Shown: positions 64-292 of the stretch, piece by piece | Layout of the letters: the number at the start of each line of letters is the position of its first letter | Numbering within the stretch: position 1 is the first letter of the stretch | Source of the DNA: Escherichia coli | GTDB taxonomy: Bacteria; Pseudomonadota; Gammaproteobacteria; Enterobacterales; Enterobacteriaceae | NCBI RefSeq assembly: GCF_003334255.1 | Contig: NZ_QOWU01000199.1 | Reading direction: 5' to 3' (one strand) | DNA length: 669 nucleotides | The notes under the pieces: generated by a model | The model's database searches: none | What the model was told of the DNA's origin: nothing | Seen by the model: the letters and a program-made list of their open reading frames with translations, nothing else | Program-made: the position numbers and the translations under genes

Positions 64-109
64 AAAGAATAAAAAAATCCCGCAGTGATCGCGGACAGGA
101 ACTGCGGGA
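64..109 (-). terminator. Rho-independent terminator-like hairpin oriented for the minus strand
   Basis: Perfect inverted repeat CCCGCAGT (79..86) / ACTGCGGG (101..108), extendable by a T:A pair at 78/109, with a 14-nt loop (87..100). On the minus strand the stem is followed directly by ATTTTTTTATTCTTTTT (complement of 78..64). On the plus strand no U-tract follows the stem, so it is not a plus-strand terminator. Confidence 0.5.
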
Positions 110-168
110 GAGTTACGAAGATTAAGTGTAAGGAATTATTCTTATGTCACGACAAAAAAAATTAACGC
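64..168 (-). ncRNA. Candidate ~100-nt small RNA in the I–J spacer, antisense to the tail operon (hypothetical)
   Basis: Bounded by the candidate minus-strand promoter and the minus-strand terminator. The minus strand has no ORF longer than a few codons across 110..305. The region is AT-rich (about one-third GC by hand count over 111..240) against GC-rich flanking coding sequence. I do not recognise it as a named sRNA. Confidence 0.2.
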
Positions 169-174
169 AGCGAA

Positions 175-202
175 ATTATCAGCGCCACAGTCAGTTTGTG
201 AA
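175..202 (-). promoter_or_regulatory. Candidate sigma70 promoter on the minus strand (-35 TTCACA, 16-nt spacer, -10 GATAAT)
   Basis: Minus-strand sequence reads TTCACA (202..197), then a 16-nt spacer, then GATAAT (180..175); each hexamer matches consensus at 5 of 6 positions. AT-rich context. The predicted start near 167..169 would give a transcript ending at the terminator at 64..109. Motif match only, no expression data. Confidence 0.2.
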
Positions 203-292
203 AATGTGAAGATATTCAGAATTTTTATTCAGTCATGATACAGGCATCCTCCGGGGTGCCTGTTGTTTTTGTGAGTGAACAATTATCACGGT

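Follow-up and report, generated by a model that had tools for sequence, protein, structure and literature searches.

The window analysed here (the whole stretch of 669 nt) corresponds by homology to the place where tail gene I meets tail gene J in a lambdoid (Stx-type) prophage of E. coli; it matched Escherichia phage PhiR5_1 at 97.3% and many Stx1a, Stx2a and Stx2c phages at about 92%. The 3' end of the gene for the tail tip assembly protein I occupies positions 1–63 of the plus strand (stop TAA at 61–63), and the I coding sequence of PhiR5_1 ends equivalently. The 5' part of the gene for the tail tip/host specificity protein J follows on the same strand at 306–669, with an ATG at 306 that agrees with the annotation of PhiR5_1, CFT073, E2348/69 and Sakai, and with a Shine-Dalgarno sequence, GAGGTG, at 295–300. 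Just 3' of this Shine-Dalgarno sequence lies a two-codon ATG-TAA (301–308), whose stop overlaps the start of J (ATGTAATGG); in Sp15 the start codon of J is GTG instead of ATG. A 21-codon open reading frame on the plus strand of the spacer (144–209) was rejected because its internal A-run differs in length among homologs.

A scan of the spacer revealed a promoter-like site and an intrinsic terminator on the minus strand and a further terminator on the plus strand. The presence of both minus-strand elements indicates a transcription unit that runs leftward, in antisense orientation to the late operon. Matches to the spacer were found in 1748 of 5426 complete E. coli genomes, at up to seven places per genome. 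The strong intrinsic terminator of the plus strand (240–272; a stem of 10 pairs at 240–263 followed by a T-rich tail) stands between the control region of the leftward small RNA (sRNA) gene and J, and in tandem arrays it is present in a single copy adjoining J, outside the repeated module. Lying inside the late operon, this terminator may act in the lysogen as an insulator of J or of the sRNA promoter. CFT073-type spacers have another hairpin (CCCCGGTATC...GATACCGGGG) in its place.

The leftward unit can be compared with PasB, which in E2348/69 is an 83-nt RNA of prophage PP6, encoded on the minus strand at NC_011601.1 1466343->1466261 and detected with the Northern probe AATCCCGCAGTGATCGCGGAGCT (Pearl Mizrahi et al., 2021, PMC8550237, table S6). 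This RNA was validated by Northern blotting, found bound to Hfq by RIL-seq and shown to be Hfq-dependent (PMC8550237), and its gene has been described as lying within a phage structural-gene operon (Zhu, Shabalina and Storz, 2026, bioRxiv 10.64898/2026.05.13.724894). In the E2348/69 genome we located it in the I-J spacer, between genes annotated as "tail assembly protein" and "tail tip protein J." Alignment places its 3' end at window position 71 and its 5' end at 153, so that the ends of the gene in the window (71–153, minus strand, approximately 153->71) are taken over from the E2348/69 annotation. Over its first 20 nt the probe is identical to positions 76–95 (20/23 matches overall). The two RNAs are 73% identical over 83 nt, with the last 25 nt identical, and the upstream regions (154–228) agree at 70 of 75 positions. 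The intrinsic terminator of the sRNA (71–109, minus strand) is composed of a perfect 9-bp inverted repeat (stem arms 78–86 and 101–109) and a U-run (71–77), and RNA folds show it as a stable 3' hairpin. Given its place in the I-J spacer, its antisense orientation to the tail genes and its homology, including the 3' stem-loop and U-tail, the window is judged from sequence to carry a diverged gene of the PasB family of Hfq-dependent sRNAs, with the repeats under study directly upstream of it. PasB is among the most widespread prophage sRNAs of pathogenic and extraintestinal E. coli.

The window variant and the E2348/69 PasB share the locus, the terminator, the 3' end, the upstream region and a UCCUU...AUCUUC core before the terminator; they differ in the RNA body (73% identity), and their longest common exact word is 25 nt. 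The window thus represents a diverged variant of the CFT073/PhiR5_1 lineage, which a search with the E2348/69 sequence at a word size of 28 could miss. The control region is better conserved than the RNA it drives (93% identity to E2348/69 at 154–228 vs. 73% at 86–153), and within the RNA the conserved parts are only the short UCCUU...AUCUUC stretch and the terminator. Folds of the RNA from either start consist of the terminator hairpin and a largely open region ahead of it, in agreement with the location that Zhu et al. suggest for the seed (bioRxiv 10.64898/2026.05.13.724894). A search of Rfam at a permissive threshold gave no family at its gathering score; the best match, MicX (21 bits vs. 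75), aligned solely the two terminator hairpins. An identity as an anti-sRNA of the AgvB/AsxR type was rejected, since those RNAs lie downstream of PR' and not in the tail region.

The first-pass annotation had pointed to two pairs of short direct repeats upstream of this gene. One of them is exact, with TGTGAA at 197–202 and 205–210 (8-bp period) and nowhere else in the window. The 13-bp period reported for TATTCAG is also correct, but the two copies lie at 213–219 and 226–232, one position before the coordinates originally given. The repeats are intergenic, as proposed, within the non-coding spacer between the stop of I and the ATG of J, and they do overlap the minus-strand promoter-like site TTCACA (202->197)-16-GATAAT (180->175). 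This site matches the sigma-70 consensus at 10 of 12 positions, and two such sites were found vs. 0.6 expected. The further suggestion that the repeats contribute to a -35 region holds for the first TGTGAA, which reads exactly as the -35 hexamer TTCACA (197–202, minus strand), but this hexamer is lineage-specific, being kept in only four of ten lineages.

The shuffling control proposed in the same annotation gave a mixed result. When the 238-bp spacer was shuffled 2000 times with dinucleotide frequencies preserved, 0.6–0.9 close exact direct repeats of 6 nt or more were expected, vs. three observed (P = 0.025–0.057), and a single direct repeat of at least 7 nt was unremarkable (P = 0.15–0.22). 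The close direct repeats are thus only marginally beyond chance.

Homologs were sampled independently of the repeats by scanning viral contigs for the terminator word ATAAAAAAATCCCGCAG, which yielded 120 loci with 66 distinct 270-nt segments. Four of these segments share the anchor only, and one (L028) has a PasB body with a replaced upstream region; the other 61 and the window make up the 62 homologs compared below, and clustering at 90% over window positions 71–196 divided them into ten lineages. Conservation of the repeat units across homologous spacers, named earlier as a check, was not observed: the first TGTGAA was kept in 39/62 homologs and the second TATTCAG in 14/62, while adjacent bases were kept. 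At the first TGTGAA only one of six positions is invariant in the ten lineages, and its substitutes include ACAGAA, GCCGGA, TGCAGA and ACTGAA, among others. At the second TATTCAG (226–232), two of seven positions are invariant, and the alternatives among the 62 homologs are TATTCCG (26), TATGCCA (11) and TATTTAT (5). The duplication as such is kept in four of ten lineages for TGTGAA and in three of ten for TATTCAG. The second TATTCAG is located at a mosaic junction, as CFT073-type genomes match the window at 60–228 only and diverge after TTTTAT; it is a non-conserved flank at a recombination junction, with no sign of a function.

Tandem sites of the OmpR/PhoB type have a period of 10–11 bp. 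The repeats studied here have periods of 8 and 13 bp and unconserved partner copies, and for these two reasons tandem response-regulator sites (OmpR, PhoB, ArcA and CpxR, partly compared by hand) were rejected; no tandem-binding regulator considered fits the observed periods. This, together with the lack of conservation of the partner copies, makes the duplication best treated as coincidence. It is scarcely credible that a regulator recognizing direct repeats binds each of the two pairs, although both pairs exist and 6-mer repeats are slightly enriched (P ~0.03–0.06). The direct repeats appear to be a misleading cue, and the actual signal would be an inverted pair that takes one copy from each repeat.

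The possibility that the repeats are protein-binding half-sites had also been raised earlier. The second TGTGAA and the TCAGA of the first TATTCAG are indeed invariant and half-site-like, but these arms pair as an inverted dyad, TGTGA-N6-TCAGA, and not with their direct-repeat partners. The dyad is a 22-bp element of the CRP type, AAATGTGA-AGATAT-TCAGAATT (202–223, core 205–220, centre 212/213), which contains the second TGTGAA (205–210) and the first TATTCAG (213–219) and can be summarized as AAATGTGA-N6-TCAGA. Positions 202–210 (AAATGTGAA), 212, 216–220 (TCAGA), 223–226 and 228 are invariant in all ten lineage representatives. Variation is found at the dyad centre (213–215) and at 221–222, and the bases between the arms are AGATAT, AGAGTT, AGAAAT, AGAAAA, ATAAAC or AGAATT. 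A T-rich flank, TTTTAT (223–228; 223–226 and 228 invariant), forms the distal edge of the box, and the mosaic junction comes immediately after it. Across the homologs, the stretch from the box to the -10 elements is free of indels.

In the block 202–228, 20 of 27 columns are invariant in the ten lineages, vs. 14% outside it, and mean pairwise identity is 0.89, vs. 0.63 in the RNA body, 0.65 at 154–201 and 0.45 beyond 228; since the homologs are related by descent and recombination, these values are not independent trials. The box was kept in 62 of 63 distinct PasB-body homologs. In the remaining one (L028, variant u13), the box, the first TGTGAA and the xATAAT element are replaced by unrelated sequence with a breakpoint at about window position 167; this natural "promoter swap" keeps a TAnnnT hexamer (TAATGT).

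The conservation bears on the earlier caution that the repeats could be chance in low-complexity DNA. This caution was justified for the duplication itself, but not for the surrounding region, which is the best-conserved block of the spacer and lies immediately upstream of an experimentally validated sRNA family. Consequently, although the 7-mer repeat (P = 0.15–0.22) and the marginal 6-mer count would allow it, we consider it very improbable that everything seen here is chance in an A/T-rich spacer, without regulatory meaning. The interpretation of the dyad as an operator is well supported by the conservation pattern.

A box without a dedicated regulator would be either an A/T-rich, promoter-proximal upstream element or a recombination "linker" between lambdoid modules that is kept uniform. 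Such an explanation would account for the mosaic junctions at the distal edge of the box (after 228), for the duplication and shuffling of modules as units bounded by the box, and for its T-rich and A-rich flanks. However, variation is confined mainly to 213–215 and 221–222, whereas two 5-bp arms are invariant at a fixed spacing even though the neighbouring sequences of the lineages are only 45–65% identical, a pattern better explained by base-specific contacts than by recent common ancestry; besides, an UP element does not need arms containing G/C. For these reasons we regard an upstream element or linker as quite improbable.

The distribution of the core was examined in 1.14 Mb of fetched loci. 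The motif TGTGA-N6-TCAGA occurred 123 times at a constant spacing from the PasB terminator, and there were 17 further occurrences. Of these 17, 15 have the same extended context, about 180–240 bp from another copy, and lie upstream of further PasB-like modules; the other two are unrelated, vs. about 2.2 expected by chance in this amount of DNA. When each species, represented by one genome, was scanned for AAATGTGAA-N5-TCAGA-N2-TTTT, Escherichia albertii was the sole enterobacterial match, with a CFT073-type spacer. The other 26 matches were scattered over unrelated phyla in a chance-like manner (about 9 expected at uniform composition), and a wider family for the box beyond E. albertii was therefore rejected.

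Comparison with the motifs of known regulators, which the first-pass annotation had recommended, gave a CRP-like match for the inverted dyad. With no more than one mismatch allowed, TGTGA-N6-TCACA is matched in the window solely by TGTGAAGATATTCAGA (205–220), 0.04 matches being expected per window. With an approximate CRP matrix, built from 16 classic sites, the dyad at 202–223 scored 16.0 bits, which is above 15 of the 16 leave-one-out scores and was reached by 1 in 1000 shuffled windows; all lineage variants of the box scored 16–18 bits. The 22-bp two-fold site with invariant arms and a variable centre in ten lineages also has the symmetry of a CRP site. The predicted site resembles cAMP-CRP promoters in this two-fold architecture, in the TGTGA-N6-TCACA core, in the A/T-rich flanks and in the sigma-70 promoter downstream. 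It differs from the known ones in its right arm, which is invariably TCAGA and not the CRP-preferred TCACA, and in the location of its gene inside a phage late operon, in antisense orientation. Among CRP-controlled sRNA genes, cyaR is activated and spf, encoding Spot 42 (Spf), is repressed by cAMP-CRP; as in these two cases, the putative site at PasB lies upstream of a promoter for an Hfq-dependent sRNA.

Other regulators gave poorer fits. FNR and CRP-S were rejected with four and three core mismatches, respectively. Comparison by hand also excluded palindromes of the Cra, GalR and TyrR types, since TCAGA is preceded by a variable base and a central CG is lacking, and the lambda CII motif TTGC-N6-TTGC, as the transcribed strand has no TTGC repeat. 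An operator for a regulator other than CRP, host- or prophage-encoded, that recognizes the TGTGA/TCAGA dyad would nevertheless explain several features: the right arm that is never TCACA, the near-invariance of A210, G211 and A212, which CRP alone does not require, the distance of -44.5 from the best promoter match, which is non-canonical for CRP, and the rise of PasB in static overnight LB, which also fits stationary-phase or low-oxygen regulators. Against it stand the score of the box as a strong CRP site in every lineage with the approximate matrix, the mismatches to FNR and CRP-S and the poor fit to the Cra, TyrR and GalR-type consensus sequences; moreover, a phage regulator with several operators would be at odds with the absence of other copies in about 1.1 Mb of flanking phage DNA. 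We thus consider a non-CRP regulator rather unlikely, and we favour, with modest confidence, CRP acting as an activator.

Two candidate -10 elements lie downstream of the box on the minus strand. The first, P1, is the scan-derived GATAAT at 175–180, with a predicted start at about G168 that would give a 98-nt RNA. Its hexamer in the 62 homologs is TATAAT (35), AATAAT (13), TATCAT (6), GTGCAT (5), GATAAT (2) or CATAAT (1), and it is therefore xATAAT or TATCAT in 57/62, while the -35 is conserved only in window-like lineages. The first TGTGAA would thus serve as the -35 of another sigma-70 promoter, one close to consensus and confined to this lineage. The GATAAT of the window (ATTATC on the plus strand) is rare, being found in two of the 62 distinct homologs, most of which have the consensus TATAAT; owing to this hexamer the window copy may be a slightly weaker promoter. 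The second candidate, P2, is TAATTT (TAnnnT) at 159–164, which was recognized by conservation: T164, A163 and T159 are invariant in all ten lineages, and TAnnnT is present in 62/62 homologs (variants TAATTT, TAGTGT, TACAGT, TACTTT, TAATGT and TACCGT). Its predicted start, at about 152–153, coincides with the inferred position of the annotated PasB 5' end, an end that was set by RNA-seq coverage and might have arisen by processing.

The centre of the box (212.5) lies at -44.5 from the P1 start (~168), at -59.5 from the annotated 5' end (153) and at -60.5 from the P2 start. CRP sites are centred at -41.5 in class II promoters and at -61.5 in class I promoters such as lac P1, with further positions at helical-turn steps. 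With respect to P1, the best sigma-70 match, the box is therefore at neither a class II nor a class I position. The distance from the box centre to the first base of the TAnnnT -10 is 48.5 bp, vs. 49.5 bp between the CRP centre and the -10 of lac. On these grounds we lean towards P2 with class I-like activation as the arrangement that would operate at PasB. The use of P2 alone would leave the conserved xATAAT at 175–180 without explanation, and the PasB 5' end could also result from processing of a P1 transcript at the U-run.

According to the mechanism that we propose, the PasB gene would be a self-contained insert between I and J, comprising terminator, RNA and promoter. cAMP-CRP, the catabolite regulator of the host, would bind the 22-bp dyad at 202–223 upstream of this leftward gene and activate its transcription when preferred sugars are absent, acting in a class I-like geometry from about -60 relative to the annotated 5' end. 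Published expression data can be set beside this catabolite control. PasB levels were higher in overnight static LB (the "non-activating" condition) than in DMEM at 37 °C in mid-exponential phase (the "activating" condition), and Spot 42 showed the opposite behaviour, with about fivefold higher levels in DMEM (PMC8550237). The opposite responses of PasB and the CRP-repressed Spot 42 agree with activation by CRP; SdsR and FnrS also rise in static LB, so that growth phase and oxygen confound the contrast (PMC8550237). The element appears to be ordinary in kind but undescribed for PasB, as neither PMC8550237 nor bioRxiv 10.64898/2026.05.13.724894 gives a promoter or regulator of this RNA. A CRP-type operator would supply a concrete and easily tested hypothesis for PasB regulation, on which these papers are silent.

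Eleven of the 120 loci carry two to four boxes, in modules about 180–240 bp apart: four boxes in L071 (687–1510), L019, L060, L072 and L086, three in L044, and two in L009, L010, L062, L084 and L119. The I-J spacer of L071, of about 900 bp, contains four modules; their RNA bodies differ, and every one has a box, a -10-like element and its own terminator on the minus strand. Every module of an array has its own box and only the last one adjoins J, which argues for assigning the box to the leftward RNA genes instead of J; for the same reason, a rightward J promoter using the box was rejected. As judged from their sequences, the multi-box loci are arrays of diversified sRNA genes.

The sRNAs EcOnc22, EcOnc23 and EcOnc24 have been reported in Sp15, Sp14 and Sp11 of E. 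coli O157 Sakai (Tree et al., 2014, PMC4104026, Table S2). They are mutually homologous, crosslinked to Hfq, about 85 nt long on Northern blots and destabilized without Hfq (PMC4104026). In the current Sakai record, the coordinates given there correspond to three I-J spacers of 240 bp with identical sequence (L153 at 2902691–2902930, L155 and L156), on the strand opposite to that of the tail genes. Calibration on AgvB1 shows an offset of +139 for this record at 1.94 Mb, and the same offset was assumed at 2.17–2.90 Mb; with it, the EcOnc22 peak lies at about 2902853–2902913, inside the PasB-like RNA. In L153 the box is at 2902784–2902799, AATAAT at 2902824–2902829 and TACTTT at 2902840–2902845, and the U-tail ends at 2902926. 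These RNAs resemble the window gene as Hfq-associated RNAs of about 85 nt in the I-J spacer, antisense to the tail genes, with the same box upstream; they differ from it in that lineage B has no TTCACA -35, an AATAAT -10 and AGAGTT at the box centre. EcOnc22–24 are probably PasB-family RNAs of lineage B, an assignment that rests on the offset calibration and not on published sequence. The Pas papers (PMC8550237; bioRxiv 10.64898/2026.05.13.724894) do not mention this equivalence.

A conserved CRP-type operator, if real, would tie PasB, EcOnc22–24 of O157 and the multi-copy arrays into one family of modules. Only tentatively, as a possibility that we hold well short of conviction, we extend this to the suggestion that, in lambdoid prophages of Escherichia, the I-J spacer serves as a cassette site for sRNA genes of a single family under CRP control, which includes PasB and EcOnc22–24. 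The box and terminator ends would be fixed, the RNA body (the seed) would diversify, and modules would be duplicated and exchanged into arrays of up to four under one catabolite signal.

Phage morons, reportedly described by Juhala et al. in 2000, are autonomous inserts among the late genes of lambdoid phages, in which a gene is flanked by a promoter and a terminator. The PasB unit resembles them in being compact, in having a promoter and a terminator to itself and in lying between two conserved late genes, with mosaic junctions on both sides, and if the proposed regulation is true, it would be a tail-operon moron switched on by carbon limitation in the lysogen. Unlike phage morons, it carries a small RNA and not a protein gene as cargo, is antisense to the operon and forms arrays of up to four modules.
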